64,000 nucleotides of DNA from Escherichia phage teqhal, in sequence record MN895435.1, one strand, 5' to 3'. The translations under genes and the position numbers were made by a program. Positions 1,302 through 55,062 of this stretch are shown piece by piece (positions within the stretch are counted from its first letter, which is position 1; each line of letters starts with the position of its first letter). The notes under the pieces were generated by a model. The model searched no databases. It worked only from the letters and a program-made list of their open reading frames with translations, and was not told where the DNA came from.

Positions 1302-1398
1302 AGTTTAAAATTTTTTCATAAAACTATATACATCAGTAGTTGATTATGGTACTATATCAATATCAACTACTGATACAGAAAACAACTTGGAGAATAAA

Positions 1399-2874: not shown

Positions 2875-3135
2875 ATGAAATATATTAATCGTTCTATCGC
2901 AGCATTAGTATTAGCAGTGTCTTTAGTAGGATGTACTGATGCTGATAATGCAACTAAAGTTTTGTCTTCAAGTGGTTTTACTAATATTGAAATCACTGGA
3001 TATAACTGGTTCGGTTGCTCTGAAAATGATTTCCAACATACTGGATTTCGTGCTATTGGACCTACCGGGCAGAAAGTAGAAGGAACAGTATGTTCTGGGC
3101 TGTTCTTTAAGGATTCAACTATTCGTTTTAAATAA
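2875..3135 (+). CDS. putative lipoprotein, 86 aa
   Basis: Signal peptide followed by lipobox LVGC (MKYINRSIAALVLAVSLVGCTD); followed by a hairpin. Confidence 0.5.
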   Translation: MKYINRSIAALVLAVSLVGCTDADNATKVLSSSGFTNIEITGYNWFGCSENDFQHTGFRAIGPTGQKVEGTVCSGLFFKDSTIRFK

Positions 3136-3136
3136 A

Positions 3137-3153
3137 AGGCCTTCGGGCCTTTA
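3137..3153 (+). terminator. UUCG-loop hairpin after the lipoprotein ORF (weak terminator or RNA stability element)
   Basis: aggcc-ttcg-ggcct stem-loop followed by TT. Confidence 0.35.
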
Positions 3154-3204
3154 GCTTTATGATTACCGGAGTATAATATTCCCGAAACCAAACGAGGATA
3201 AGTG

Positions 3205-5022
3205 ATGATTAAGAATGAAATTAAAATTCTGAGCGATATTGAACATATCAAAAAGCGTAGTGGCATGTACATTGGCTCTTCTGCTAATGAAATGCATGAG
3301 CGCTTTCTGTTTGGTAAATGGGAAAGTGTTCAGTATGTACCTGGTCTTGTTAAGCTTATTGATGAAATTATCGATAACTCAGTCGATGAAGGTATTCGTA
3401 CTAAGTTTAAATTCGCGAATAAAATTAATGTTACCATTAAAAATAATCAGGTAACAGTTGAAGATAACGGTCGCGGTATTCCACAAGCGATGGTTAAAAC
3501 ACCTACCGGTGAAGAAATTCCTGGTCCAGTTGCTGCTTGGACTATTCCAAAAGCGGGTGGTAACTTCGGTGATGATAAAGAACGCGTCACTGGCGGTATG
3601 AATGGTGTTGGTTCTAGTTTAACTAACATTTTTTCTGTGATGTTTGTCGGAGAAACTGGCGACGGTCAAAATAATATTGTAGTTCGTTGTTCAAACGGCA
3701 TGGAAAATAAATCATGGGAAGATATTCCTGGAAAATGGAAAGGAACCCGTGTTACTTTCATTCCTGATTTTATGTCATTTGAAACTAATGAGCTGTCCCA
3801 AGTTTATCTTGACATTACACTAGATCGTCTCCAGACACTTGCTGTTGTTTATCCTGATATTCAATTTACCTTTAATGGTAAAAAGGTTCAGGGCAATTTT
3901 AAGAAATATGCACGCCAATATGATGAGCATGCTATTGTTCAAGAACAAGAAAATTGTTCTATTGCGGTTGGTCGTTCACCGGATGGTTTTCGTCAATTAA
4001 CTTATGTGAATAACATCCACACTAAGAATGGTGGCCATCACATTGACTGTGTTATGGATGATATTTGTGAAGACCTTATTCCACAAATCAAACGTAAGTT
4101 CAAAATTGATGTAACTAAAGCACGTGTCAAAGAATGTTTGACTATCGTTATGTTTGTTCGTGATATGAAAAACATGCGATTTGATTCTCAAACTAAAGAG
4201 CGTTTGACTTCTCCATTTGGCGAAATTCGTAGTCATATTCAGCTTGATGCTAAAAAGATTTCACGCGCTATTTTAAACAATGAAGCGATTTTGATGCCAA
4301 TTATTGAAGCTGCGTTGGCTCGTAAATTGGCGGCAGAAAAAGCAGCAGAAACTAAAGCAGCTAAAAAGGCTTCTAAAGCTAAGGTTCATAAACATATCAA
4401 AGCGAATCTTTGTGGTAAAGATGCTGATACTACTCTTTTCTTGACTGAGGGTGATTCGGCTATCGGATATCTTATTGATGTTCGTGATAAAGAACTTCAT
4501 GGTGGTTATCCATTGCGTGGTAAAGTTCTCAACAGTTGGGGTATGTCATATGCTGATATGCTTAAAAACAAAGAACTGTTTGATATTTGCGCAATCACTG
4601 GATTAGTTCTCGGTGAAAAAGCTGAAAACTTGAATTATCATAATATTGCTATTATGACTGATGCTGACCATGATGGTCTAGGAAGCATTTATCCTTCTCT
4701 GCTCGGGTTTTTTAGTAATTGGCCAGAATTGTTTGAGCAAGGACGAATTCGCTTTGTCAAAACTCCTGTAATCATCGCTCAGGTCGGTAAAAAACAAGAA
4801 TGGTTTTATACAGTCGCTGAATATGAGAGTGCTAAAGATGCTCTACCTAAACATAGCATCCGTTATATTAAGGGACTTGGCTCTTTGGAAAAATCTGAAT
4901 ATCGTGAGATGATTCAAAATCCGGTATATGATGTTGTTAAACTTCCTGAGAACTGGAAAGAGCTTTTTGAAATGCTCATGGGAGATAATGCTGACCTTCG
5001 TAAAGAATGGATGAGCCAGTAG
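3205..5022 (+). CDS. 39: DNA topoisomerase II large (ATPase) subunit, single-chain 39+60 type
   Basis: 605 aa from ATG at 3205 (track start 3202 is GTG); N-terminus MIKNEIKILSDIEHIKKRSGMYIGS is GyrB/gp39-like; continuous ORF with no bypass element. Confidence 0.9.
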   Translation: MIKNEIKILSDIEHIKKRSGMYIGSSANEMHERFLFGKWESVQYVPGLVKLIDEIIDNSVDEGIRTKFKFANKINVTIKNNQVTVEDNGRGIPQAMVKTPTGEEIPGPVAAWTIPKAGGNFGDDKERVTGGMNGVGSSLTNIFSVMFVGETGDGQNNIVVRCSNGMENKSWEDIPGKWKGTRVTFIPDFMSFETNELSQVYLDITLDRLQTLAVVYPDIQFTFNGKKVQGNFKKYARQYDEHAIVQEQENCSIAVGRSPDGFRQLTYVNNIHTKNGGHHIDCVMDDICEDLIPQIKRKFKIDVTKARVKECLTIVMFVRDMKNMRFDSQTKERLTSPFGEIRSHIQLDAKKISRAILNNEAILMPIIEAALARKLAAEKAAETKAAKKASKAKVHKHIKANLCGKDADTTLFLTEGDSAIGYLIDVRDKELHGGYPLRGKVLNSWGMSYADMLKNKELFDICAITGLVLGEKAENLNYHNIAIMTDADHDGLGSIYPSLLGFFSNWPELFEQGRIRFVKTPVIIAQVGKKQEWFYTVAEYESAKDALPKHSIRYIKGLGSLEKSEYREMIQNPVYDVVKLPENWKELFEMLMGDNADLRKEWMSQ

Positions 5023-5290: not shown

Positions 5291-7468
5291 ATGATTATCA
5301 CCACTGAAAAAGAAACAATTCTTGGTAATGGTTCTAAATCAAAAGCATTTAGCATCGCAGCAAATCCTAAAGTATTTAAAATTCTATCATCTGATTTGTA
5401 TACAAACAAGATTCGCGCAGTAGTCCGTGAATTGATTACTAACATGATTGATGCTCATGCACTTAATGGAAATCCTGAAAAATTTATCATTCAAGTTCCA
5501 GGACGATTAGATCCACGATTTGTTTGTCGAGATTTTGGTCCGGGTATGAGTGATTTTGATATTCAGGGTGATGATAATTCTCCTGGTTTGTATAATTCAT
5601 ACTTCAGTTCATCTAAGGCTGAATCTAACGATTTCATTGGCGGATTTGGGTTAGGTTCTAAATCTCCGTTTAGTTATACTGATACATTTAGTATTACTTC
5701 TTATCATAAAGGTGAAATTCGTGGTTATGTAGCTTACATGGATGGCGATGGTCCACAAATTAAACCTACATTCGTAAAAGAAATGGGTCCAGATGATAAA
5801 ACTGGTATTGAAATCGTAGTTCCAGTTGAAGAAAAAGACTTTAGAAACTTTGCTTATGAAGTTTCTTATATCATGCGACCATTCAAAGATTTGGCTATCA
5901 TTAATGGTCTTGACCGCGAAATTGATTATTTTCCGGATTTTGATGATTATTATGGCGTAAATCCAGAAAGATACTGGCCTGATCGCGGTGGATTATATGC
6001 TATCTATGGCGGTATTGTTTATCCTATCGATGGTGTTATTAGAGACCGTAACTGGCTAAGCATTCGCAATGAAGTGAATTACATTAAGTTTCCAATGGGT
6101 TCACTTGATATTGCTCCATCTCGCGAGGCTCTTTCACTGGATGATCGCACTCGTAAAAATATTATTGAACGAGTTAAAGAACTCAGTGAGAAAGCATTTA
6201 ATGAAGATGTAAAACGATTTAAAGAATCTACATCTCCTCGTCATACATATCGTGAATTGATGAAGATGGGGTATTCTGCTCGAGATTATATGATTAGTAA
6301 TTCAGTCAAATTCACGACTAAAAATCTGTCATATAAGAAAATGCAGAGCATGTTTGAACCTGACAGTAAGTTATGTAATGCAGGCGTGGTGTATGAAGTA
6401 AATCTTGACCCTCGACTGAAGCGTATTAAGCAAAGTCATGAAACTTCAGCCGTTGCATCAAGTTATCGTCTGTTTGGTATTAATACGACAAAAATTAATA
6501 TTGTTATTGATAATATTAAAAATCGTGTTAATATTGTCCGTGGATTAGCACGTGCATTAGATGATAGTGAATTTAATAACACCTTAAATATTCATCACAA
6601 TGAGCGTCTTCTGTTTATTAATCCGGAAGTAGAATCACAGATTGATTTGCTTCCTGACATTATGGCGATGTTTGAAAGTGATGAAGTTAACATTCATTAT
6701 TTGTCAGAAATTGAAGCTTTAGTTAAAAGCTATATTCCAAAGGTAGTTAAAAGTAAAGCTCCTCGTCCTAAAGCTGCTACAGCATTTAAATTTGAAATTA
6801 AAGATGGGCGATGGGAAAAAGAGGAACTATTTACACTTACGTCAGAAGCAGATGAAATTACTGGTTATGTAGCGTATATGCATCGTTCTGATATTTTCTC
6901 TATGGATGGTACTACATCGCTTTGTCATCCATCTATGAATATTTTGATTCGTATGGCTAATCTTATTGGCATTAATGAATTTTATGTTATTCGTCCGCTT
7001 TTGCAGAAAAAGGTAAAAGAGCTTGGTCAGTGCCAATGTATTTTTGAAGCTTTACGTGATTTATATGTAGATGCTTTTGATGATGTAGATTATGATAAGT
7101 ATGTAGGTTATTCAAGTTCAGCTCAACGATATATTGATAAAATTATCAAGCATCCTGAACTAGATTTTATGATGAAGTACTTCAGTACAGATGAAGTTTC
7201 TGAAGAATATACACGACTTGGTAATATGGTTAGTTCATTACGCGGTGTATATTTCAACGGTGGAAAAGATACCATCGGTCATGATATCTGGACAGTAACT
7301 AATCTCTTTGATGAATTATCACGTAATGCTTCAAAAAATAGTGATAAAATGGTTGCTGAGTTTACCAAGAAATTCCGTATTGTTTCCGACTTCATCGGTT
7401 ATCGCAACTCTTTAAGTGATGATGAAGTTTCCCAAATCGCTAAAACTATGAAGGCCCTTGCGGCCTAA
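5291..7468 (+). CDS. rIIA: rIIA membrane-associated protein (protects against Rex-type exclusion)
   Basis: 725 aa, the T4 rIIA length; N-terminal ATPase-like region; followed directly by a 312 aa ORF. Confidence 0.85.
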
Positions 7469-8446: not shown

Positions 8447-8641
8447 ATGTTAGGTTATCAAGCACGAGTAAAAGAAGAATACGATCAATTAATGCTCAAA
8501 ATTAATGCACTGAGTAAATTTTTAGAAAGCACAAAGTTTCTAACGGTTAGTGCAGTTGAGCAAGAACTGCTACTTTCACAGTTCATCTCAATGAAATCTT
8601 ATGCTGAATGTTTAGAGAAAAGAATTGCACAATTCAAATAA
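8447..8641 (+). CDS. hypothetical protein, 64 aa
   Basis: ORF with AAGGAAA RBS. Confidence 0.45.
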   Translation: MLGYQARVKEEYDQLMLKINALSKFLESTKFLTVSAVEQELLLSQFISMKSYAECLEKRIAQFK

Positions 8642-8645
8642 ATAA

Positions 8646-8666
8646 GGGCTTCGGCCCTTTTGTTTT
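8646..8666 (+). terminator. rho-independent terminator
   Basis: gggc-ttcg-gccc hairpin followed by TTTTGTTTT. Confidence 0.6.
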
Positions 8667-8723
8667 AAGGGAAACTATGATTTTGTATGAATATCAGTGA
8701 TTCCGACGTAAAAGGAAAGTTTA

Positions 8724-9281
8724 ATGCAGAAAACGAATCCGGGTTTACAGAGACTATTTCAGATTCCGACATTTACCCTATCGAACAGTGACTTGACTAG
8801 TGAAATGAAGGTCAAAATTGCTGATACAGCAAGATACTCTTTAAAACAAAATCCAAATCAGGATAAGGCAGAAGTTATCGAAAGATGCCGTATCGCTGTG
8901 TACGCAGAGTTTTTTGTGGCAGATTGGCTAAGCGGATATGTCAATAAAGGCCAAGAAGATGTCGATGATCCGTACACATATGCATGGGATGTTTTAGCAC
9001 ATCCAAAATACTGTGGGCTCCGTGTAGAAGTTAAGACACATCAAACTGACTCGCGTTGGATTTCGGTAACAACGGGATGCAGCGGAGAGTATCCATATGG
9101 TTCTGGAATAAATCTAGGGCCCATTCTAAATCATCAAGTCGCGGACTGTATAATTATATTCAACACTAAAGAAATTCATCCAGGTGTCATCCAGTACACT
9201 CCGAAGTTCATTGGTGATAGAGAAGACCTTCGTAAGGTTGTAAGAAAAAGCAACTACAACGGCTGGTATCTTTCCATTTAA
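8724..9281 (+). CDS. denB: endonuclease IV (cytosine-DNA-specific ssDNA endonuclease)
   Basis: 185 aa, the T4 DenB length; adjacent to rIIB as in T4; AAGGAAAG RBS. Confidence 0.65.
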   Translation: MQKTNPGLQRLFQIPTFTLSNSDLTSEMKVKIADTARYSLKQNPNQDKAEVIERCRIAVYAEFFVADWLSGYVNKGQEDVDDPYTYAWDVLAHPKYCGLRVEVKTHQTDSRWISVTTGCSGEYPYGSGINLGPILNHQVADCIIIFNTKEIHPGVIQYTPKFIGDREDLRKVVRKSNYNGWYLSI

Positions 9282-9297
9282 AAATTTTCACAAAACG

Positions 9298-9328
9298 GTT
9301 TACATACCACAAGGACCGTGGTATTATA
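9298..9328 (+). promoter_or_regulatory. early (sigma70-type) promoter
   Basis: -35 GTTTACA, TG-extended -10 TGGTATTAT, A/T-rich upstream; followed by conserved leader ACTATCAACTACTGATAC. Confidence 0.5.
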
Positions 9329-9364
9329 CAACTATCAACTACTGATACGGATTTGGAGAATAAA

Positions 9365-9628
9365 ATGAAATTTAAATTTTATTACGCTAAACATAAAATA
9401 ACTGATGAGTTTGTGTCAGTTGAATATTCTAGCGATGATGAAGGTATGATTTATACTCGCTTGGGACTATCGCATTGGGAGTCTGATACGCCTTATTTTT
9501 CAACTCCCGAAGAAATTACACGCTTAGTTAATGGTCATATGAATGACCACTGGAATGTAATTCTTTCAGATAGTCTTAAAGCAGCTATTAATAGTAATGA
9601 AATGAAAATCGCTGAGATTGAGCTATGA
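9365..9628 (+). CDS. hypothetical protein, 87 aa
   Basis: ATG preceded by GGAGAATAAA leader. Confidence 0.5.
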   Translation: MKFKFYYAKHKITDEFVSVEYSSDDEGMIYTRLGLSHWESDTPYFSTPEEITRLVNGHMNDHWNVILSDSLKAAINSNEMKIAEIEL

Positions 9629-9711: not shown

Positions 9712-9806
9712 AAATTTTGAATTCTGTACTTATTGCTTGTGCGTGGTGGGTTGCACAGGTTTCAGCGGTAGTAGTTGGTATTCACATTTATTACGAATAT
9801 TTTTAA
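9708..9806 (+). CDS. tiny hydrophobic peptide, 32 aa
   Basis: ATGA overlap with upstream stop; single predicted transmembrane helix. Confidence 0.25.
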   Translation: MKILNSVLIACAWWVAQVSAVVVGIHIYYEYF

Positions 9807-9871
9807 AAAAGTTGTTTACAGGACTGTTCTTCCGTGGTACTATTACCCTATCAACTACGGAGGAACAGAAA

Positions 9872-9985
9872 ATGAAAAAGATTGTTAAAGCTATATGGAA
9901 TGTAGTTATAATACTAATAGTTTTGAGTATATTCCCAATCGTTTTAATGATTGATATGTTAAACGCTTATTTTGGATTTATGTGA
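9872..9985 (+). CDS. small membrane peptide, 37 aa
   Basis: GGAGGAACAGAAAATG RBS; one transmembrane helix (track ORF 9737 extends upstream without an RBS). Confidence 0.35.
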   Translation: MKKIVKAIWNVVIILIVLSIFPIVLMIDMLNAYFGFM

Positions 9986-12898: not shown

Positions 12899-12903
12899 TT
12901 TTA

Positions 12904-12929
12904 GGGAGAGCCGAGGCTCTCCCTTTTTT
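12904..12929 (+). terminator. rho-independent terminator
   Basis: gggagagc-cgag-gctctccc hairpin followed by TTTTTT. Confidence 0.7.
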
Positions 12930-12955
12930 ATTTCAAAAATTTTTTCATAAAACGG

Positions 12956-12984
12956 TTTACAACCAAAGCATACTGTGGTACTAT
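12956..12984 (+). promoter_or_regulatory. early promoter upstream of motA
   Basis: -35 TTTACA, 17 bp spacer, TG-extended -10 TGGTACTAT; followed by conserved leader AACTATCAACTACTGATACAGAA. Confidence 0.55.
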
Positions 12985-13025
12985 ACAACTATCAACTACT
13001 GATACAGAATTACGGAGATTAGAAA

Positions 13026-15319: not shown

Positions 15320-15480
15320 GTCATAATCTTGAAAAAGTAATCGAGCATAATGTAGCTCAGGAACGTAAGTCGTTCAAGGAATTCGTAGAAAAAATTTTTG
15401 AAGAAAATAACACAGACCAGTTTACAAATCAAGCGTCTGATGATATTATAACAAAGTCAACTAATTGAGTGGTATAGTTA

Positions 15481-29037: not shown

Positions 29038-29062
29038 TTGCTTATTATAAATAGATTATAAT
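29036..29062 (+). promoter_or_regulatory. putative MotA-dependent middle promoter, overlapping a late-promoter motif, for gene 32
   Basis: MotA-box-like TTGCTTAT about 12 bp upstream of TATAAT; TATAAATA at 29046..29053. Confidence 0.45.
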
Positions 29063-29070
29063 TATCTCAC

Positions 29071-29136
29071 TGACCAGCTATGAGGTCATACATCGTCATA
29101 GCACCAACTGTTAATTAAATTAAAAAGGAAATAAAA
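29071..29136 (+). promoter_or_regulatory. gene 32 autoregulatory translational operator (pseudoknot plus A/U-rich region)
   Basis: tgacc-agctatga-ggtca-tacatcg-tcatagc gives two interleaved stems (tgacc/ggtca and gctatga/tcatagc), followed by A/U-rich sequence up to the gene 32 ATG. Confidence 0.75.
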
Positions 29137-30067: not shown

Positions 30068-30092
30068 GGGGACCTCTAGGGTCCCTTTTTTT
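30068..30092 (+). terminator. rho-independent terminator after gene 32
   Basis: ggggacc-tcta-gggtccc hairpin followed by TTTTTTT. Confidence 0.7.
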
Positions 30093-30118
30093 ATTTCAAA
30101 AATTTTTTCACAAAATGG

Positions 30119-30147
30119 TTTACATCCTTGTCCTTCCATGGTACTAT
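30119..30147 (+). promoter_or_regulatory. early promoter
   Basis: -35 TTTACA, 17 bp spacer, TG-extended -10 TGGTACTAT, A/T-rich UP-like sequence. Confidence 0.55.
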
Positions 30148-30190
30148 ACAACTATCGGCAATACTGCTGATGATTAAAGAGGAAAATAAT

Positions 30191-31069: not shown

Positions 31070-31164
31070 TTAAGCTTGGTAAGTGGCTCGATAAAATTCA
31101 AAAATAATTGTTTACAACGGGCTATGGTAATGATACTATAGCCTTATCAACTAAGGAGAATAAA

Positions 31165-31407
31165 ATGAGATTACAACGTCAGAGCATCAAAGATTCGGAA
31201 GTTAGAGGTAAATGGTATTTTAATATCATCGGTAAAGATTCTGAACTTGTTGAAAAAGCTGAACACCTTTTACGTGGCATGGGATGGGAAGATGAATGTG
31301 ATGGGTGTCCGCTTTATGAAGACGGTGAAAGCGCAGGATTTTGGATTTACCATTCTGACGTCGAGCAGTTTAAAGCCGATTGGAAAATTGTGAAAAAGTC
31401 TGTTTAA
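31165..31407 (+). CDS. hypothetical protein, 80 aa
   Basis: AAGGAGAATAAAATG conserved leader; promoter-like GTTTACA...TGATACTAT upstream. Confidence 0.45.
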   Translation: MRLQRQSIKDSEVRGKWYFNIIGKDSELVEKAEHLLRGMGWEDECDGCPLYEDGESAGFWIYHSDVEQFKADWKIVKKSV

Positions 31408-31417
31408 GGAAAATAAT

Positions 31418-32244
<827 letters not shown>

Positions 32245-32263
32245 AATAACGCGTGGCGGAAAT

Positions 32264-32611
32264 ATGAATTTTAATTATTACCCTATTCTATTAGAAAAAG
32301 ATGAGAAACAGCCAAAGTGGCAGGGTCCTCAGTTTATTAAAGGCGTTTATCAATTAGTAGTTCCTAAAGACAAGATTTATAGTAGTTGTTTCACTGAATC
32401 CGCTTGCAGTATTTTCGGTAATAGTTCTCCGTATTGGAATTTTGACATAAAGCTGGATAGAAATATTGATATTTGGTTGAAAGCTATGGATATTGGTAAT
32501 ATCACGTTTGATGAGAATAATTATCATATTATTGGTCGTTTTTCCAAACGCGGTAAAGAATTATATTTCACACCTGAAATTGAGAGAAAATTTGATGCTA
32601 AACCGTATTGA
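32264..32611 (+). CDS. hypothetical protein, 115 aa, between frd and td
   Basis: ORF with weak RBS. Confidence 0.45.
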   Translation: MNFNYYPILLEKDEKQPKWQGPQFIKGVYQLVVPKDKIYSSCFTESACSIFGNSSPYWNFDIKLDRNIDIWLKAMDIGNITFDENNYHIIGRFSKRGKELYFTPEIERKFDAKPY

Positions 32612-32656
32612 TTATTTAGCTTCATAAAATGTATTATAATTTATATAAGGTACTAA

Positions 32657-33517
32657 ATGAAACAATACCAAGATTTAATTAAAGACATTTTTGAAAATGG
32701 CTATGAAACCGATGACCGAACGGGCACAGGAACAATTGCTCTGTTCGGTACTAAATTGCGTTGGGATTTAACCAAAGGTTTTCCTGCAGTAACAACTAAG
32801 AAGCTCGCCTGGAATGCATGCATTGCTGAGCTAATATGGTTTTTATCAGGAAGCACAAATGTTAATGATTTACGATTAATTCAACACGATTCGTTAATCC
32901 AAGGCAAAACAGTTTGGGATGAAAATTACGAAAATCAGGCAAAAGATTTAGGATACCATAGCGGTGAACTTGGTCCAATTTATGGAAAACAGTGGCGTGA
33001 TTTTGGCGGTGTAGACCAAATTATAGAAGTTGTTGATCGTATTAAAAAACTGCCAAATGATAGGCGTCAAATTGTTTCTGCGTGGAATCCAGCTGAACTT
33101 AAATATATGGCATTACCTCCTTGTCATATGTTCTATCAGTTTAATGTGCGTAATGGCTATTTAGATTTGCAGTGGTATCAACGTTCGGTAGATGTTTTCC
33201 TCGGTCTTCCATTTAATATTGCATCATATGCTACGTTAGTTCATATTGTAGCTAAGATGTGTAATCTTATTCCGGGAGATTTGATATTTTCTGGTGGTAA
33301 TACTCATATCTATATGAATCACGTAGAACAATGTAAAGAAATTTTGCGTCGTGAACCTATGGATTTATGCGAATTACAATTAAAATTTCCAGATGAATTT
33401 GATGAATGGGACACAGAATCGCAGGTATTTTGGTTGAGTCAATTTGCAAAGCCTCATAATTTTGTTCTTAACAACTATGTATCTCATCTGCCAATTAAAG
33501 GAAAAATGGCGGTATAA
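32657..33517 (+). CDS. td: thymidylate synthase, uninterrupted
   Basis: 286 aa continuous ORF; thymidylate synthase active-site region MALPPCHMFYQFNV. Confidence 0.9.
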   Translation: MKQYQDLIKDIFENGYETDDRTGTGTIALFGTKLRWDLTKGFPAVTTKKLAWNACIAELIWFLSGSTNVNDLRLIQHDSLIQGKTVWDENYENQAKDLGYHSGELGPIYGKQWRDFGGVDQIIEVVDRIKKLPNDRRQIVSAWNPAELKYMALPPCHMFYQFNVRNGYLDLQWYQRSVDVFLGLPFNIASYATLVHIVAKMCNLIPGDLIFSGGNTHIYMNHVEQCKEILRREPMDLCELQLKFPDEFDEWDTESQVFWLSQFAKPHNFVLNNYVSHLPIKGKMAV

Positions 33518-34084: not shown

Positions 34085-36339
34085 TTAATGTTATCAAAAG
34101 TAGTGGTGTTTCTCAGAGCTTTGACCCACAAAAAATTATTAAAGTTTTATCTTGGGCAGCTGAAGGAACATCGGTAGATCCTTATGAATTATATGAAAAT
34201 ATTAAATCTTATCTCCGTGATGGAATGACAACTGATGATATTCAGACTATTGTCATTAAGGCCGCTGCGAATTCTATTTCGGTTGAAGAGCCTGATTATC
34301 AATATGTAGCTGCACGTTGTCTAATGTTCGCTCTTCGTAAGCATGTTTATGGGCAGTATGAACCACGTTCATTTATTGACCATATTTCTTACTGTGTAAA
34401 TGAAGGTAAATACGACCCTGAATTATTGTCAAAATATTCAGCAGAAGAAATTACATTTTTAGAATCAAAAATTAAGCACGAGCGGGATATGGAATTTACT
34501 TATTCCGGGGCGATGCAATTAAAAGAAAAATATCTAGTTAAAGATAAAACCACTGGTCAAATTTATGAAACTCCACAGTTTGCATTTATGACTATTGGAA
34601 TGGCATTGCATCAAGATGAACCTGTTGATAGATTAAAACACGTTATCCGTTTTTATGAAGCAGTATCTACTCGACAGATTTCATTGCCAACTCCTATTAT
34701 GGCTGGTTGCCGTACTCCGACTCGACAGTTTAGTTCATGTGTTGTTATTGAGGCAGGTGATTCATTAAAGTCTATCAATAAGGCTTCCGCTTCAATTGTT
34801 GAATATATCTCTAAACGCGCTGGAATTGGTATTAACGTTGGTATGATTCGTGCTGAAGGTTCTAAGATTGGCATGGGTGAAGTACGCCATACCGGTGTTA
34901 TTCCTTTTTGGAAACATTTTCAGACTGCTGTTAAATCATGCTCACAGGGTGGAATTCGTGGCGGCGCTGCTACTGCTTATTATCCTATTTGGCATTTGGA
35001 AGTTGAAAATCTTCTCGTTTTGAAAAATAACAAAGGTGTAGAAGAAAACCGCATTCGTCATATGGATTATGGTGTTCAACTGAATGATCTAATGATGGAA
35101 CGTTTTGGAAAGAACGATTACATTACTTTGTTCAGTCCACATGAAATGGGTGGAGAGCTTTATTATTCTTATTTTAAAGACCAAGACCGTTTCCGTGAAT
35201 TATACGAAGCAGCAGAAAAAGACCCTAATATTCGTAAAAAGCGCATTAAAGCCCGTGAACTATTTGAATTGCTCATGACTGAACGCTCAGGAACAGCAAG
35301 GATTTATGTGCAGTTCATTGATAATACGAATAACTATACTCCGTTTATTCGTGAAAAGGCACCTATTCGTCAGAGTAACTTGTGCTGTGAAATTGCTATT
35401 CCAACAAATGATGTGAATAGCCCTGATGCTGAAATTGGATTGTGCACGTTATCTGCATTTGTGTTGGATAACTTCGATTGGCAAGACCAAGATAAAATTA
35501 ATGAATTAGCAGAAGTTCAAGTTCGTGCTCTTGATAATCTTTTGGATTACCAAGGATATCCAGTTCCTGAAGCAGAAAAAGCTAAAAAGCGTCGAAACCT
35601 TGGTGTAGGTGTTACTAACTATGCAGCTTGGCTGGCAAGTAACTTTGCTTCTTATGAAGATGCTAACGATTTAACACATGAACTATTTGAGAGATTACAG
35701 TATGGACTCATTAAAGCATCCATTAAGCTCGCCAAAGAAAAAGGACCTTGTGAATATTATTCAGACACTCGTTGGTCTCGAGGCGAATTACCTATCGACT
35801 GGTACAATAAAAAGATTGACCAAATCGCAGCTCCAAAATACGTTTGTGACTGGTCGTCGCTGCGGGAAGACCTTAAGCTCTTTGGCATCCGTAATAGCAC
35901 ATTATCAGCACTTATGCCATGTGAGTCATCTTCCCAAGTTTCTAACAGTACAAACGGTATCGAGCCTCCACGTGGACCAGTCTCTGTTAAAGAATCAAAA
36001 GAGGGCTCCTTTAATCAAGTCGTGCCCAATATTGAGCATAACATAGACCTCTATGATTATACATGGAAATTAGCTAAGAAAGGTAATAAACCTTATCTTA
36101 CGCAGGTAGCTATTATGCTGAAATGGGTATGTCAATCAGCTTCAGCGAATACATATTATGACCCACAGATTTTTCCAAAAGGAAAGGTTCCAATGTCAAT
36201 AATGATTGATGACCTTTTGTATTTTTGGTATTTTGGCGGAAAAAATTTCTATTATCATAATACCCGTGATGGTTCTGGTACTGATGATTATGAAATAGAA
36301 ACTCCAAAAGCTGAAGATTGTTCATCCTGTAAATTATGA
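34075..36339 (+). CDS. nrdA: ribonucleoside-diphosphate reductase large subunit
   Basis: 754 aa, the T4 NrdA length; class I RNR large-subunit sequence. Confidence 0.9.
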   Translation: MQLINVIKSSGVSQSFDPQKIIKVLSWAAEGTSVDPYELYENIKSYLRDGMTTDDIQTIVIKAAANSISVEEPDYQYVAARCLMFALRKHVYGQYEPRSFIDHISYCVNEGKYDPELLSKYSAEEITFLESKIKHERDMEFTYSGAMQLKEKYLVKDKTTGQIYETPQFAFMTIGMALHQDEPVDRLKHVIRFYEAVSTRQISLPTPIMAGCRTPTRQFSSCVVIEAGDSLKSINKASASIVEYISKRAGIGINVGMIRAEGSKIGMGEVRHTGVIPFWKHFQTAVKSCSQGGIRGGAATAYYPIWHLEVENLLVLKNNKGVEENRIRHMDYGVQLNDLMMERFGKNDYITLFSPHEMGGELYYSYFKDQDRFRELYEAAEKDPNIRKKRIKARELFELLMTERSGTARIYVQFIDNTNNYTPFIREKAPIRQSNLCCEIAIPTNDVNSPDAEIGLCTLSAFVLDNFDWQDQDKINELAEVQVRALDNLLDYQGYPVPEAEKAKKRRNLGVGVTNYAAWLASNFASYEDANDLTHELFERLQYGLIKASIKLAKEKGPCEYYSDTRWSRGELPIDWYNKKIDQIAAPKYVCDWSSLREDLKLFGIRNSTLSALMPCESSSQVSNSTNGIEPPRGPVSVKESKEGSFNQVVPNIEHNIDLYDYTWKLAKKGNKPYLTQVAIMLKWVCQSASANTYYDPQIFPKGKVPMSIMIDDLLYFWYFGGKNFYYHNTRDGSGTDDYEIETPKAEDCSSCKL

Positions 36340-36390
36340 TATAATTTGACTCACGGACGAGTCACCAACTATTAACTAAGCGGAAAATTT

Positions 36391-37569
36391 ATGAGCACAG
36401 TTTTTAATACAAATCCAGTTGATGTTTTAAAAGAACCTATGTTTTTTGGTTCAGGTCTTGGTATTGCGCGTTATGATATTCAACGCCATAAAGTTTTTGA
36501 AGATTTAACCGAAAAGCAATTATCATTTTTCTGGCGTCCTGAAGAAGTAAACTTAATGATGGATGCTGCACAGTTTAATAAGATTCCTCAGTATCAGCAA
36601 AATATTTTTACTAATAATCTGAAGTATCAATCACTTTTGGATAGCATTCAGGGTCGTGCGCCGTCTGCTGTACTTATGTCATTAATTTCAGACCCAAGCC
36701 TTGATACATGGGTTGCTACGTGGACTTTTAGTGAAACTATTCACTCTCGTTCATATACACATATCATGCGAAATCTTTATACTGATCCATCGAAGGTATT
36801 TGATGAGATTGTATTAGATGAAGCTATTATGAAACGTGCTGAATCCATTGGACGTTATTATGATGATGTTCTGACTAAAACTCGTTATTGGGAAAACGCT
36901 AAAGCTGATATCGAATACCAAAAAGAAATTAATGCAGACGAAGATGTTATTGAAGATGCTATTGAGCATGAGACATATTGGAAGCGTGAGCTAATGAAAT
37001 CTCTTTACCTCTGTTTGCATGTAATCAACGCATTGGAAGCTATTCGTTTTTATGTATCTTTCGCATGTACCTTTAACTTCCATAAGAACATGGAAATTAT
37101 GGAAGGCAATGCAAAGATTATGAAGTTCATTGCACGTGATGAGCAGCTTCATCTTAAAGGTACACAATATATTATTCGTCAACTTCAATCTGGTACTGAT
37201 GGCGATGAATGGGTTAAAATTGCTCAAGAGTGTGAACAAGAAGCAGTTGATATTTTCATGGAAGTTAACCGCCAAGAAAAAGATTGGGCAGTTCATTTAT
37301 TTAAAGATGGCGATGTTCCTGGATTAAATACAAATAGCATGTGGAGCTTTATTGATTACTTAACTGTATCTCGTATGAAACAGTGTGGTCTTCCATGCCC
37401 AATTACCGATGCTCCGGTTAAACATCCATATCCTTGGATTCGTGAATATCTTAATTCTGATAATGTTCAATCCGCGCCACAAGAAGTAGAACTGTCATCT
37501 TATCTTGTTGCACAGATTGATAATGATGTTGATGATAAAGTTATGATGAGTTTTAAAAAATACTTTTAA
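36391..37569 (+). CDS. nrdB: ribonucleoside-diphosphate reductase small subunit, uninterrupted
   Basis: 392 aa continuous ORF; R2-like di-iron ligand spacing. Confidence 0.9.
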   Translation: MSTVFNTNPVDVLKEPMFFGSGLGIARYDIQRHKVFEDLTEKQLSFFWRPEEVNLMMDAAQFNKIPQYQQNIFTNNLKYQSLLDSIQGRAPSAVLMSLISDPSLDTWVATWTFSETIHSRSYTHIMRNLYTDPSKVFDEIVLDEAIMKRAESIGRYYDDVLTKTRYWENAKADIEYQKEINADEDVIEDAIEHETYWKRELMKSLYLCLHVINALEAIRFYVSFACTFNFHKNMEIMEGNAKIMKFIARDEQLHLKGTQYIIRQLQSGTDGDEWVKIAQECEQEAVDIFMEVNRQEKDWAVHLFKDGDVPGLNTNSMWSFIDYLTVSRMKQCGLPCPITDAPVKHPYPWIREYLNSDNVQSAPQEVELSSYLVAQIDNDVDDKVMMSFKKYF

Positions 37570-39187: not shown

Positions 39188-39242
39188 GTTTACAAGTCCC
39201 TCATGTTGTGTTACAGTAGTCTTACTGACATAACATGAGGAC
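39188..39242 (+). promoter_or_regulatory. promoter-plus-hairpin cassette, copy 1, upstream of alc
   Basis: GTTTACA -35 then imperfect hairpin cctcatgtt...aacatgagg enclosing a -10-like TACAGTAGT; right arm contains the GAGGA Shine-Dalgarno; near-identical copy at 55009..55062. Confidence 0.5.
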
Positions 39243-40616: not shown

Positions 40617-41841
<1,225 letters not shown>

Positions 41842-42510: not shown

Positions 42511-42572
42511 TAGTTTACTTTACAGTAGAGTTGTGATATTATGGCTCTACCAAACAAATGAGGAAATTGAAA

Positions 42573-43100
42573 ATGAGCGAATGGTTTGAAGAAGATAAGG
42601 TTTATCGCTTTAAAGCTGGATATAAAGATATTTTTAATGAAACTTGCGGGGCTAATAAACGAATTGCTCAGTTTATTGGGGAAAATTCATTTAAAGTAAA
42701 AATTGATCCCGCGAAAAATGTTATTAGCATTAAACGTGAAATTGACGATTACTGGTATAAAGCTGTTGATGTAATGGGTGAATGCTATAAAGATAGCCCA
42801 TTATTTTCAATTACTTATATGTCAGAATATTATTTTTTCGAAGAAGTTCAAAAAGATGATTCTGTCAGTAAATTTGAAATTAAAACTGATAAAGAAATTA
42901 AATGGAAAGTAGTAGGTATTACTGGTTGTATGTTTTATATCTATGCTCAAACTGATACGAAGGAAGAAGCTAAAAAGAAAGCTCTAGAATATCTTGAAGA
43001 GTATGAAGAAGGCCCGGTAATGATTACTCAAGATGCTGAATTAGTTTCTGTCAAATTAGTTAAAAACGTTGAAAGTAAGGAGCTGGGATCAACATGCTAA
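42573..43100 (+). CDS. hypothetical protein, 175 aa
   Basis: GAGGAAATTGAAAATG RBS. Confidence 0.5.
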   Translation: MSEWFEEDKVYRFKAGYKDIFNETCGANKRIAQFIGENSFKVKIDPAKNVISIKREIDDYWYKAVDVMGECYKDSPLFSITYMSEYYFFEEVQKDDSVSKFEIKTDKEIKWKVVGITGCMFYIYAQTDTKEEAKKKALEYLEEYEEGPVMITQDAELVSVKLVKNVESKELGSTC

Positions 43101-46027: not shown

Positions 46028-46052
46028 ATTTTCCAAAGATTGCACAAAGTTG

Positions 46053-46081
46053 TTTACAGTATGGTTCCTTTGTGATAGTAT
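46053..46081 (+). promoter_or_regulatory. early promoter
   Basis: -35 TTTACA, 17 bp spacer, TG-extended -10 TGATAGTAT; followed by AAGGAGAATAAAATG leader. Confidence 0.5.
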
Positions 46082-46108
46082 TATCTTACACAAACAAAGG
46101 AGAATAAA

Positions 46109-46441
46109 ATGAAAACGATTAATCTGAACGCTACAGTTAAAACTAAATGCTTCAACGGTAAATATGATGAAACTATGTGGTTCTTAATGGCAGTTGAAGG
46201 TGATATTATTGAAGTAGAAACAACAGAAGGTATGGGAACAGATTTCACCTTTACAATTCAAGTTCATAATTTCTTTACTGGTTGGATTTATGAATTGAAT
46301 ACAGTAATCGTTGGAAAAATTGAACAAAATGAATTAGGCGAATGGCATTATGTTACAGCTCGCCAACGTGCCGAACGCTTAATTGAGAAGATGAAAAAAG
46401 TTGGTAAACTTGACATGCAGCATTGGAAAGTAGTAAAATAA
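46109..46441 (+). CDS. hypothetical protein, 110 aa
   Basis: ORF with conserved leader. Confidence 0.5.
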   Translation: MKTINLNATVKTKCFNGKYDETMWFLMAVEGDIIEVETTEGMGTDFTFTIQVHNFFTGWIYELNTVIVGKIEQNELGEWHYVTARQRAERLIEKMKKVGKLDMQHWKVVK

Positions 46442-50617: not shown

Positions 50618-50802
50618 AAGCTTACTTAGAAACAGTTGTCGTAGCTCAAAAAGAAGGTGGAGATGTTTCTACTTCTGTATCACAAGTCGTTCTCGAATTT
50701 GTAGATGCATATGCTTATAATAAATTTACAGAAACATTTGATGCCTATGAAAAAGGTCCAAAGTTTGAAATATACCGTACTCTCTTACCACTAGATTATT
50801 AA
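50614..50802 (+). CDS. hypothetical protein, 62 aa
   Basis: ATGA overlap with ligase stop; followed by hairpin. Confidence 0.45.
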   Translation: MKAYLETVVVAQKEGGDVSTSVSQVVLEFVDAYAYNKFTETFDAYEKGPKFEIYRTLLPLDY

Positions 50803-50818
50803 AGGCCTTCGGGCCTTT
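50801..50818 (+). other. UUCG tetraloop hairpin (weak terminator or stability element)
   Basis: aaaggcc-ttcg-ggccttt. Confidence 0.4.
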
Positions 50819-50854
50819 AATTTTATAAATAGAATAAACACTAGAGAGGATATG

Positions 50855-52948
50855 ATGGAACTCATTACAGAATTATTTGACGAAGATACTACTCTTCCGA
50901 TTACAAACTTAAATCCAAAGAAGAAAATACCACAAATTTTTTCAGTTCACGTTGATGATGCAATTGAACAACCAGGCTTTCGTTTATGTACCTATACATC
51001 TGGAGGTGATACTAATCGCGATTTAAAGATGGGCGATAAAATGATGCATATTGTTCCTTTTACATTAACTGCTAAAGGTTCAATTGCTAAATTGAAAGGT
51101 CTTGGTCCAAGCCCAATTAATTATATCAATTCAGTTTTTACTGTTGCAATGCAAACAATGCGTCAGTATAAAATTGATGCCTGTATGCTCCGTATTCTTA
51201 AGTCTAAAACTGCTGGTCAAGCTCGACAAATTCAAGTTATTGCTGATAGACTTATCCGTAGTCGTTCAGGTGGAAGATACGTCCTTCTTAAGGAACTCTG
51301 GGATTATGATAAAAAGTATGCATATATTCTTATACATCGCAAAAATGTATCACTAGAAGACATTCCAGGAGTTCCGGAAATTAGTACCGAGCTCTTTACT
51401 AAGGTTGAATCGAAGGTCGGTGATGTTTATATCAATAAAGATACTGGAGCTCAAGTAACTAAAAATGAGGCAATTGCAGCATCTATTGCACAAGAAAATG
51501 ATAAACGTTCTGACCAAGCTGTAATCGTTAAAGTTAAAATTTCCCGTAGAGCAATTGCACAAAGTCAGTCATTGGAATCTTCTAGATTTGAAAGTGAATT
51601 ATTCCAGAAGTATGAATCTACCGCAGCTAATTTCAATAAACCTGCTACTGCTCCTTTAATTCCCGAAGCAGAAGAAATGAAGCTTGGAATTAATTCATTA
51701 GCTTCTAAAACTAAGGCAGCAAAAATTATTGCCGAAGGAACTGCGAATGAACTTCACTATGACTATAAATTCTTTTCAAAAAGTGAGGTTAATGAAGTTT
51801 CCGAAAAAATTAAAGATGTAATTCTTAATGCGATCAAAAATGAACCAACTACTTCAATAAAATGTTTAGAGAAATACGCAGCAGCTGTCAATCAATTCTT
51901 TGAAAAATATAAAGATAATTGGCTTGATAAACATAATAAAACTCGTAAAGGGCAGCCAGATGAAGTCTGGGAAGAAATAACTAAAAATTCCTGGAACGCA
52001 GCAAAAACTAAATTCCTCAAACGAATGATTTATAGTTTTTCTGGAATTGGTGCAGGCCCAATGATTGATATTACTATTGCCCGCGATGGTTCTAAATATA
52101 CTCCATCACAAAAGCGTGGCATTAGAGAATATTGCGGTTCAGGATATACTGACATCAATAATCTTCTTTTAGGTCGTTACAATCCAGAACGATATGATGT
52201 AATGAGTGAAAAAGAAATTGAATCTGCTATAAATAATTTAGATTCAGCTTTTGAAAATGGTGACCGTATACCAGAAGGCATTACAGTTTATCGTGCTCAA
52301 AGCATGACTGCTCCTATATACGAAGCACTAGTTAAAAATAAAGTGTTCTATTTCAGAAATTTTGTATCTACTTCTTTAACTCCTATCATTTTTGGACGTT
52401 TTGGAATTACACATGCTGGTATTGGTCTTTTAGAACCAGAAGCTCGTAACGAATTAACGGTTGATAAAAATGAAGAAGGAATAACTATTAATCCAAACGA
52501 AATAAGAGCGTATAAAGAAAATCCTGAATACGTTAAAGTTCAAATAGGATGGGCAATTGATGGAGCTCATAAAGTTAATGTTGTATATCCAGGAAGTCTC
52601 GGAATAGCAACAGAAGCTGAAGTTATTCTACCGCGCGGATTGATGGTTAAAGTTAATAAAATAACTGATGCTTCTAATAATGACGGAACCACGTCTAATA
52701 ATACAAAACTCATTCAAGCTGAAGTTATGACCACAGAAGAACTCACCGAATCGGTAATCTATGACGGAGACCATTTAATGGAAACCGGCGAAGTAGTTGC
52801 AATGACAGGTGATATTGAAATAGAAGACAGAGTTGACTTTGCATCATTTGTTTCATCAAATGTTAAACAGAAAGTAGAATCATCTCTTGGAATTATTGCG
52901 TCTTGCATAGATATTACAAACATGCCTTACAAGTTCGTTCAAGGATAA
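50855..52948 (+). CDS. Alt-family ADP-ribosyltransferase, paralog 1
   Basis: 697 aa; candidate R-S-E motifs (VYRAQ, FVSTSL, EAEVILPRG); N-terminal MELITELFDE leader; N- and C-termini near-identical to the downstream paralog. Confidence 0.8.
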   Translation: MELITELFDEDTTLPITNLNPKKKIPQIFSVHVDDAIEQPGFRLCTYTSGGDTNRDLKMGDKMMHIVPFTLTAKGSIAKLKGLGPSPINYINSVFTVAMQTMRQYKIDACMLRILKSKTAGQARQIQVIADRLIRSRSGGRYVLLKELWDYDKKYAYILIHRKNVSLEDIPGVPEISTELFTKVESKVGDVYINKDTGAQVTKNEAIAASIAQENDKRSDQAVIVKVKISRRAIAQSQSLESSRFESELFQKYESTAANFNKPATAPLIPEAEEMKLGINSLASKTKAAKIIAEGTANELHYDYKFFSKSEVNEVSEKIKDVILNAIKNEPTTSIKCLEKYAAAVNQFFEKYKDNWLDKHNKTRKGQPDEVWEEITKNSWNAAKTKFLKRMIYSFSGIGAGPMIDITIARDGSKYTPSQKRGIREYCGSGYTDINNLLLGRYNPERYDVMSEKEIESAINNLDSAFENGDRIPEGITVYRAQSMTAPIYEALVKNKVFYFRNFVSTSLTPIIFGRFGITHAGIGLLEPEARNELTVDKNEEGITINPNEIRAYKENPEYVKVQIGWAIDGAHKVNVVYPGSLGIATEAEVILPRGLMVKVNKITDASNNDGTTSNNTKLIQAEVMTTEELTESVIYDGDHLMETGEVVAMTGDIEIEDRVDFASFVSSNVKQKVESSLGIIASCIDITNMPYKFVQG

Positions 52949-55009: not shown

Positions 55010-55062
55010 TTTACAAGTTCCTTATGTTGTGTTATAGTAGTCTTACTGACATAACATGAGGA
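55009..55062 (+). promoter_or_regulatory. promoter-plus-hairpin cassette, copy 2
   Basis: Near-identical to 39188..39242: GTTTACA then hairpin ccttatgtt...aacatgagg with the SD in the right arm. Confidence 0.5.

Follow-up and report, generated by a model that had tools for sequence, protein, structure and literature searches.

Repeated promoter and leader regions of Escherichia phage teqhal as probable copies of a T4-type early promoter cassette

The early promoters (Pe) of bacteriophage T4 and their ribosome-binding regions have reportedly been described (Liebig & Rueger, 1989; Miller et al., 2003), and they serve here as the reference for a family of repeated promoter and leader regions in Escherichia phage teqhal (sequence record MN895435.1), of which a stretch of 64,000 nucleotides, called the window, was analyzed. 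According to reviews, these promoters are 'uber' promoters, in which UP element, -35 element, TGn and -10 element are joined by extra consensus regions, with GTTTAC at -36 to -31 (Hinton, 2010, PMC2988021, among others). A second related system is the promoter-early stem-loop (PeSL), a conserved unit of about 100 bp that comprises a stem-loop, an AT-rich region, an early promoter, a Shine-Dalgarno (SD) sequence and an ATG and that is found in hyperplastic regions (Arbiol et al., 2010, PMC2839356; Comeau et al., 2014, PMC4122927). PeSL mini-circles were demonstrated in RB49/phi1 by inverse PCR, and a recombination protein that binds the stem-loop was speculated upon (Arbiol et al., 2010, PMC2839356). 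For the T4/PST pair, to which the concept was later extended, the consensus is TTTACW-N17-TAYWAT; one of the examples is an exchange in the ndd region, which adjoins one of the repeats treated here (Comeau et al., 2014, PMC4122927). Two further systems are the target sites of RegB/S1, with the strong cleavage consensus GG*AGRAYARAA (Durand et al., 2006, as reviewed in PMC3014915), and the translation control exerted in T4 by late promoters that lie inside a hairpin, as in the genes e, soc, 49 and I-TevI (PMC3014915).

Four loci of the window, at about 1320, 9281, 12935 and 30094, had originally been predicted from the letters alone to belong to a family of early-promoter and leader cassettes, and all four are present. 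The first two lie downstream of motB and denB, the third precedes motA and the fourth follows gene 32; the copy downstream of denB is referred to as the focal copy. With a probability of about 0.85, these repeats are copies of a T4-type early promoter cassette, a portable expression unit for the host sigma-70 RNA polymerase. An independent repeat search returned one 73-nt direct-repeat family (1292-1364, 9264-9336, 12921-12993 and 30084-30156) whose members match the motA copy at 64-100% identity. If up to two mismatches are allowed, GTTTACA-N14-TGGTAYTAT occurs 10 times in the window, always on the + strand (0.11 expected), and the 23-nt leader with up to three mismatches occurs at 1358, 9330 and 12987 (0.00 expected). 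The blocks conserved in a MAFFT alignment are the UP region, the -35 element, TGG plus -10, the first ~15 nt downstream and the SD/ATG. The promoter spacers of different copies are only 0.1-0.6 identical. Over the 30 nt past the -10, the copy downstream of denB and the motA copy reach an ungapped identity of 0.83, as compared to ~0.4-0.6 for pairs with other early promoters. Since leader, UP region and SD are conserved outside the hexamers, the outcome that the original prediction had named as fatal, a similarity confined to generic promoter hexamers, does not apply. Among the 20 sites of an independent sigma-70 scan, only 4 carry the TG, and three of these are 9299-9327, 9815-9843 and 12956-12984.

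The elements of the four copies are those of T4 early promoters. A 17-bp spacer and a TGn-extended -10 element of the TAnnAT form, namely TGG plus TA(C/T)TAT, are found in each of them, as is an A/T-rich UP-like region (about -40 to -60; type A in T4) with the conserved block AAAAATTTTTTCA(C/T)AAAAC, which we take to resemble the E. coli UP consensus. GTTTACA, expected at the -35 of every copy, stands at 9298, 12955 and 30118, but not in the 1320 copy, which reads TATACA (ATATACA, two mismatches). Exact T4-type -35 elements, GTTTAC(A/T) with T and not G at -33, are present at these three positions and also at 9814 and 31110. The family is therefore larger than the four loci, as the promoters at 9814 and 31110 share the leader start (CTATCAACTA / TTATCAACTA); the promoter at 15420 shares GTCAACTA only. 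The leaders of the four copies measure 30-37 nt and are followed by a GGAG ribosome-binding site, so that AT-rich region, -35/-10, SD and start codon form a composite of about 100 bp. The comparison with PeSL cassettes that had been proposed for the repeats is borne out by this composite, by the fit to the T4/PST consensus and by orthology to T4.

A 6-kb stretch around the focal copy matches several hundred Tequatrovirus (T4-like) genomes at 96-99% identity, with Escherichia phage vB_Eco_NR1 as the best match (98.6%); judged by this similarity, the window is a Tequatrovirus genome. From the annotations of vB_Eco_NR1 and T4 it follows that the window has an orientation opposite to the T4 map and that its + strand is the T4 early-gene strand. 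A scan of the whole T4 genome for GTTTAC-N17/18-TAnnAT yielded ~35 sites, nearly all on the early strand. The site at T4 167086, after denB, has a leader and SD identical to those of the focal copy; T4 163673, before motA, has the same upstream terminator as the motA copy of the window; and the motB-cef interval of T4 shares with the 1320 copy both the degenerate -35 and the inverted repeat. Early genes follow in the same orientation, and by locus and sequence the four loci are orthologues of T4 early promoters. In the T4 submission U76612.1, the paralogous nrdC.10 cassette is annotated with a terminator, -35, -10 and 'early promoter 54.4'. The coordinate in the T4 promoter name 'Pe133295' is exactly the 7th nucleotide past the -10 of site T4:133331, and this rule for +1 puts the predicted starts in the window at about 9334, 12991, 30154 and 1362. 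Promoter activity in this phage and the exact +1 are predicted on this basis, while architecture, T4 orthology, copy number, mosaicism and the match to the RegB consensus are shown by the sequence comparisons themselves.

According to this reading, the cassette would be used by the unmodified host sigma-70 RNA polymerase immediately after infection. The A/T-rich UP element would serve the alpha C-terminal domains of the polymerase, together with GTTTACA, the 17-bp spacer and the TGn-extended TA(C/T)TAT. Transcription would start at an A ~7 nt past the -10 and produce a G-poor, essentially unstructured leader of ~30-37 nt that ends in a GGAG SD in an A-rich context. As the SD of two copies is exactly the RegB/S1 consensus, the mRNA would be made and translated at once and then be open to inactivation by RegB. 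Two causes may underlie the identity beyond the hexamers: joint selection on many contacts with RNA polymerase and ribosome, and a shared origin followed by ongoing exchange. The exchange, through homologous recombination or gene conversion between paralogous cassettes, would result in mosaic cassettes. The cassettes, especially their SD/ATG junctions, could also supply the short homologies behind the gain, loss and swapping of small early genes in hyperplastic regions.

Three copies had been said to share a transcribed leader of 20-24 nt. The three matches exist, but the first 4 nt (AACT) lie upstream of the predicted +1 (9334 and 12991), so that the shared transcribed part begins at ATCAACTAC. 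The leader of the 30094 copy is diverged, as predicted, and does not match the 23-nt leader at up to three mismatches. Five long-leader copies are present in T4 (cef, imm.1, e.8, motA and downstream of denB), all directly past the extended -10, and TATCAACTA occurs ten times on the T4 early strand, nine of them right past a -10, versus once on the other strand. Shorter leaders, CTATCAACTAC(T)GAGGAG..., precede ndd.4, nrdC.9, trna.4 and denV. The long leader looks like this short form, CTATCAACTACTGAGGAG, with a 9-nt insert (TACGGATTT) that is common to several long leaders. A search of IMG/VR gave 30 matches for the 17-mer of the leader, many of them on contigs whose size points to phages other than T4-like ones; the longer pattern of -10 plus leader gave 26 matches in 25 stretches, 23 of which are cassette copies, and the remaining three (L051, L059, L064) are without promoter context. 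What had been called a leader is part of the consensus of the early promoter family and not a separate element, and it probably has no role beyond that of a good initial transcribed region and 5' untranslated region.

Several unrelated genes had also been noted to share their initiation region. This is confirmed by GGAGAATAAAA, which occurs five times in the window (1389, 9355, 31155, 46099 and 46499), always on the + strand and against 0.32 expected, in front of proteins without similarity to each other by BLASTP. Because GGAGAATAAAA matches GGAGRAYARAA exactly and the motA site GGAGATTAGAA (13014) agrees at 10 of 11 positions, the initiation region common to these genes is the SD plus RegB signal already known from early genes of T4; the five exact sites lie in the intergenic translation initiation region (TIR) of early genes and are unpaired in predicted folds. 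The check thereby identifies GGAGAATAAAATG as a RegB/S1 signal and assigns the leader proper to the family consensus. Cutting by RegB at the GGAGAATAAAA sites is predicted from this match. Of the suggested binding or cleavage site, only the SD part agrees with a known cleavage signal; the idea that the leader proper is a structured site is not supported.

Certain observations weigh against the view of the repeats as plain expression cassettes. The leader is better conserved between paralogues than the spacer, which means that common descent alone is not the full explanation, and in view of this conservation a specific function of the leader retains some small probability. In the frd.3 copy (30094), the leader forms a hairpin at the same position with a folding energy of -8.9 kcal/mol (z = -3.3). 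With its poor -35, the 1320 copy may be an extended -10 promoter only, or a weak one. Finally, BLAST comparison of the window with T4 and analysis of the junctions of 8 window-specific, gene-sized insertions revealed none with a junction inside a promoter at both ends, so that the role of the cassettes in recombination depends on chimeric cassettes in other comparisons.

Among the alternative explanations, the one that survives best, although it is improbable, is that the conserved leader is a functional RNA element, either a 5'-terminal hairpin (AUCA-ACUAC-UGAU from +1) or a recognition site in single-stranded form. It might shield early mRNA from 5'-end-dependent attack by RNase E/RppH, or be the target of a phage factor that binds or cuts it, for example during early shut-off, a process that has been described as not completely understood. 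The hairpin would start exactly at the predicted +1, paralogue conservation is 0.83 over 30 nt compared to 0.40 for the spacer, only 4 of 200 shuffles of the 15-nt core alone fold at least as well, and the 8-bp stem of the frd.3 leader combines the retained outer pairs with additional inner ones. In its context, however, the long leader with its UAUCA-ACUAC-UGAUA folds at no more than -1.8 to -1.9 kcal/mol (z = -0.2 to -0.6; focal leader -1.9 kcal/mol, z = -0.58), which is no better than shuffled sequences. Orthologues at the focal locus, ime09 and several IMG/VR contigs, read CAACTGATAC, and CAACTAATAC is found in others; through these deletions of 3 nt, the loop shrinks to 2 nt or the 3' arm is lost. 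The frd.3 stem of T4 has a C-A mismatch at its center (read from the sequence), other Tequatroviruses with a 100% identical MotA have an unrelated leader before motA, and Rfam returned no family match in the whole window. Neither an Rfam family nor pairing kept across relatives was thus found for the leader. Weak folds, orthologue indels, the different motA leader and the Rfam result together make a structured or specifically recognized leader unlikely. A 5'-terminal hairpin was considered as the cause of the leader conservation and was rejected, since it folds no better than shuffles and is abolished by the 3-nt indels of the orthologues.

The expression cassettes of T4 type also seem to be traded between loci. 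When UP, spacer and leader segments were typed for all cassettes of T4 and the window, the types were found to reassort among loci. The frd.3 promoter of the window has the spacer atccttgtccttccatgg, the type of T4 e.8 and imm.1, whereas the T4 frd.3 promoter has aagcataaagctttatgg, the type of T4 nrdC.10, within flanks that are otherwise near-identical. In contig L066, the ndd.4 promoter retains its own UP region and is converted to the nrdC.9 type from spacer to SD. CM8 and L038-40 carry a T4-type promoter, an extra open reading frame (ORF) and then a second, different promoter before motA; the 23-nt leader CTATCAAATAAATGAACTGAAAC is common to both cassettes and MotA is 100% identical. In L055 a cassette is truncated in the spacer. 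The 101-nt motA cassette was found in 569 phage records at 3967 places, typically 7-8 per genome. The idea that the repeats are dispersed homology driving gene exchange is therefore supported by the chimeric cassettes of frd.3, ndd.4 and motA, but not by the junctions of the 8 insertions, and crossover from promoter to promoter is documented through chimeric cassettes only.

The location of the cassettes is that of hyperplastic regions. T4 has deletions in the ORFs behind the 1320 and 9281 copies, an additional ORF is inserted behind the cassette of ime09 at a TAAAATG junction, and in CM8 the extra ORF lies between the two cassettes before motA. The 8 insertions are mostly joined at microhomologies of 7-9 nt around start or stop codons (AAATGAAA, TAAATGAAA, AATTATG). 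Replacement of genes mediated by the cassette was considered for the 1320 and 9281 copies, where T4 homology ends at the ATG, and was discarded. Since both ORFs retain their ATG and 3' end in T4, they have suffered internal deletions there, at microhomologies of 7-8 nt; only ATGAAA and the last 24 nt of the focal 87-amino acid (aa) ORF are left in T4, with the deletion at the 8-nt microhomology AAATGAAA. The junctions fit the known short-homology recombination of T4 and would be consistent with the shared initiation region itself acting as dispersed homology. In this lineage, genes seem to be gained and lost mainly via start-codon microhomologies, and promoter cassettes to be reshuffled segment by segment. 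Small ORFs or ORF segments absent from T4 lie at 1407-1606, 2501-2872, 9371-9595, 31441-31646, 32250-32653, 40624-40936 and 42567-43094, and their junctions suggest microhomology-mediated gain or loss of whole genes.

Still less probable is that the cassettes are active mobile elements with a dedicated sequence-specific recombination system, as in the strong form of the PeSL mini-circle model, which builds on the inverse PCR products and the speculated stem-loop-binding protein (Arbiol et al., 2010, PMC2839356). Mobility of this kind could account for the presence of the same cassette before at least 9 unrelated genes in T4-like contigs and for one cassette that is ~93% identical across genera. 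The breakpoints, however, are scattered over spacer (frd.3, L055), leader positions +1 to +5 (CM8) and SD/ATG (ime09, T4 deletions) and share no constant crossover core. A stem-loop is lacking at two of the four copies, and most indels between window and T4 lie at the 7-9 nt microhomologies typical of T4 general recombination. The least credible explanation, a purely convergent similarity in which each promoter was independently optimized to an ideal UP/-35/TGn/-10/initial transcribed sequence/SD without shared ancestry or exchange, would suit the facts that every conserved block is a known RNA polymerase or ribosome contact and that spacers mostly differ between copies, but it conflicts with orthologous loci being chimeric, with the 9-nt insert recurring in several long leaders, and with spacers, for which there is no known contact requirement, falling into discrete types common to non-orthologous loci, such as aagcataaagctttatgg at T4 55384 and 146875 or a(t/a)(c/g)(c/a)ctgttcttccatgg at T4 27080, 70696 and window 30118.

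Two observations were made in more distant relatives. L052 (IMGVR_UViG_2974573174_000001, 171,911 bp; CF1-like, another genus) carries a cassette at 5890-5908 and its flanks that is ~93% identical over ~100 nt to the T4 nrdC.10 cassette, with a MotA of 68% identity; cassette identity far above coding similarity suggests transfer between genera or very strong constraint. In L038-L049, relatives without the T4-type motA cassette and some with 51-69% MotA identity, the spacer of the motA promoter, ~60-130 nt upstream of motA, contains a conserved GCTT(T/C)A, which resembles a MotA box overlapping an early promoter and hints at auto-activation of motA.

The upstream inverted copy of the leader that had been noted at 1331..1375 is real and consists of a 13-bp repeat (1332-1344 / 1362-1374). 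The segment 1332-1374 folds at -20.2 kcal/mol (z = -5.3), and among T4-type early promoters it ranks third by duplex energy and has the longest perfect complement (13 nt). The spacer of each T4 early promoter was compared to its own downstream 26 nt and to the downstream regions of the other promoters. A perfect complement of at least 6 nt was found in 16 of 33 own pairs versus 11% of cross pairs, and the mean duplex energy was -9.1 kcal/mol in own pairs versus -5.6 kcal/mol in cross pairs. No permutation reached the observed value (0/5,000 for the perfect complement, 0/10,000 for the duplex energy), with or without the 1332-1374 copy. The 3' arm coincides with the SD at several promoters, for example at T4 62797 (before regB), 65413, 53943 and 130310 and at 9814 (9814-9880), 46052 (46052-46110), 39188 and 55009 in the window; the spacer complementarity is absent from the long-leader copies (9298, 12955 and 30118). 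Two 54-nt promoter-like cassettes at 39188-39241 and 55009-55062 are 94% identical (GTTTACAAGTCCCTCATGTT...AACATGAGGA), and in each a spacer anti-SD pairs with the SD of the downstream gene (alc and alt.-3 by T4 synteny).

It is a tentative and rather doubtful proposal that 1332-1374 is a strong case of a genome-wide functional design based on complementarity between an early promoter's spacer and the start or SD region of the same promoter. If this is functional, read-through RNA would form a hairpin that masks the start region or SD, and RNA from the internal promoter, which is without the 5' arm, would allow a small early gene to be translated or stabilized from its own cassette only. The principle of e, soc, 49 and I-TevI would then be extended from a few late promoters to the early class, and the travelling of promoter, leader and SD as one unit would be accounted for. 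A literature search, which did not extend to older work, found nothing specific on promoter-spanning hairpins at T4 early promoters, and the novelty of the complementarity is uncertain. Its occurrence in half of the T4 early promoters could merit a dedicated look. The repeats themselves carry little weight as a discovery, as T4 early promoters and the recombination-prone role of PeSL are already established; with this known biology and a phage that shares 96-99% identity with Tequatroviruses already sequenced, the finding is accurate but unremarkable.

The coordinates of the individual copies and their parts are collected in Table 1.

Table 1. Early promoter cassettes of the window and adjoining features (transcription starts are predicted)
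Feature	Position	Strand	Remarks
UP-like region of focal promoter, CATTTAAAAATTTTCACAAAACG	9276..9297	+	From sequence and alignment with other copies; overlaps denB stop codon 9279-9281; type A, common to T4 167086, 163673, 146875, 70696, 55384 and 27080
Focal core early promoter	9298..9327	+	G + TTTACA (-35, 9299-9304), 17-bp spacer, TGG 9319-9321, TATTAT 9322-9327; exact GTTTACA-N14-TGGTAYTAT; top rank in sigma-70 scan, 10/12 with TG; orthologous to T4 167086
Focal leader, predicted transcribed, 31 nt	9334..9364	+	Contains ATCAACTACTGATACGGATTT and SD; likely +1 at A9334
Focal GGAGAATAAAA	9355..9365	+	SD and exact RegB/S1 consensus GGAGRAYARAA
87-aa ORF downstream of focal copy	9365..9628	+	Reduced in T4 to ATGAAA and the last 24 nt
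motB-downstream copy	1310..1398	+	UP region, degenerate -35 TATACA 1327-1332, TGG TACTAT 1347-1355, predicted +1 1362, long leader, GGAGAATAAAA 1389-1399, ATG 1399; architecture identical in T4 at ~6630
Inverted repeat, 13 bp, ATCAGTAGTTGAT / ATCAACTACTGAT	1332..1374	+	Encloses -10; 3' arm from predicted +1
motA.1 intrinsic terminator hairpin	12903..12924	+	Directly upstream of motA promoter; 9 pairs and T-run
motA early promoter cassette	12932..13025	+	UP region, GTTTACA 12955-12961, TGG TACTAT 12976-12984, predicted +1 12991, long leader, GGAG 13014-13017, ATG 13026; near-identical in T4
Gene 32 terminator hairpin and T-run	30068..30092	+	Directly upstream of fourth copy, after gp32 C-terminal coding sequence; read from sequence
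Cassette downstream of gene 32 (frd.3 promoter)	30094..30190	+	UP type A, GTTTACA 30118-30124, TGG TACTAT 30139-30147, predicted +1 30154, diverged leader with 8-bp hairpin 30153-30172, ATG 30191
Further member, ndd.4-type promoter	9778..9874	+	GTTTACA at 9814, TGG TACTAT ending 9843, short leader TACCCTATCAACTACGGAGG, ATG 9872
Further member, frd.1 promoter	31074..31167	+	GTTTACA at 31110, TACTAT, leader AGCCTTATCAACTAAGGAGAATAAAATG

The gene order of the window is motB.2, motB, cef, goF, 39, rIIA, rIIB, denB, ndd cluster, 52, motA, arn and asiA, followed by tail-fibre genes on the other strand and then by rnh to 32, frd, td and nrdA/B, with the series continuing to alt and past it. Mobile insertions of T4 are absent at 4622-4687, 29038-29074, 33205-33206, 36335-36391 and 37064-37067; these are mobA/60.1 with the gene 39/60 split, segG, the td intron with I-TevI, mobE plus nrdB.1 and the nrdB intron, and gene 39 is a single ORF of 606 aa (3202-5022). 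Two full-length alt-like genes are arranged in tandem (50852-52948, 698 aa; 52952-55009, 685 aa), with DNA repeat blocks of 60-94% identity at a spacing of ~2.1 kb; the T4 counterpart is one alt with the truncated remnants alt.-1 and alt.-2. A GC-rich hairpin with a UUCG-type tetraloop (AAGGCCTTCGGGCCTTT) is present in three near-identical copies (3132-3165, 8640-8673 and 50798-50831), which resemble intrinsic terminators or RNA stabilizers at gene ends.

Set beside the known systems, the cassettes share with PeSL the intergenic unit of ~100 bp with AT-rich region, early promoter, SD and ATG, the fit to TTTACW-N17-TAYWAT, the hyperplastic location beside variable small ORFs and the chimeric copies that imply exchange. 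They differ in that a terminator stem-loop lies directly upstream of the promoter at the 12935 and 30094 copies only (12903-12924 and 30068-30092) and is absent upstream of 9298, where the promoter abuts the denB stop, and of 1326; indel junctions between window and T4 also fall at start-codon microhomologies and not inside the cassettes. As at RegB/S1 target sites, GGAGAATAAAA lies predicted unpaired in the intergenic TIR of early genes, although here the cleavage sites are predicted from the sequence match and the motA site agrees at 10 of 11 positions. The 1332-1374 repeat and the spacer-to-SD complementarity of other early promoters resemble the hairpins of e, soc, 49 and I-TevI in enclosing a promoter within a hairpin that only RNA from upstream starts can form, but in the published cases the promoters are late and the genes late-expressed, whereas the internal promoter is early here. 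The closest agreement is with T4 Pe, to which the cassettes correspond in UP element, GTTTAC at -36 to -31, TGn, TAnnAT, A start and GGAG SD, in their loci (after denB, motA, frd.3, motB-cef) and in lying on the same strand as all early genes. The differences from T4, none of them essential, amount to point changes such as TATTAT instead of TACTAT at 9322, to another spacer type at the frd.3 promoter and to other genes behind two of the cassettes.

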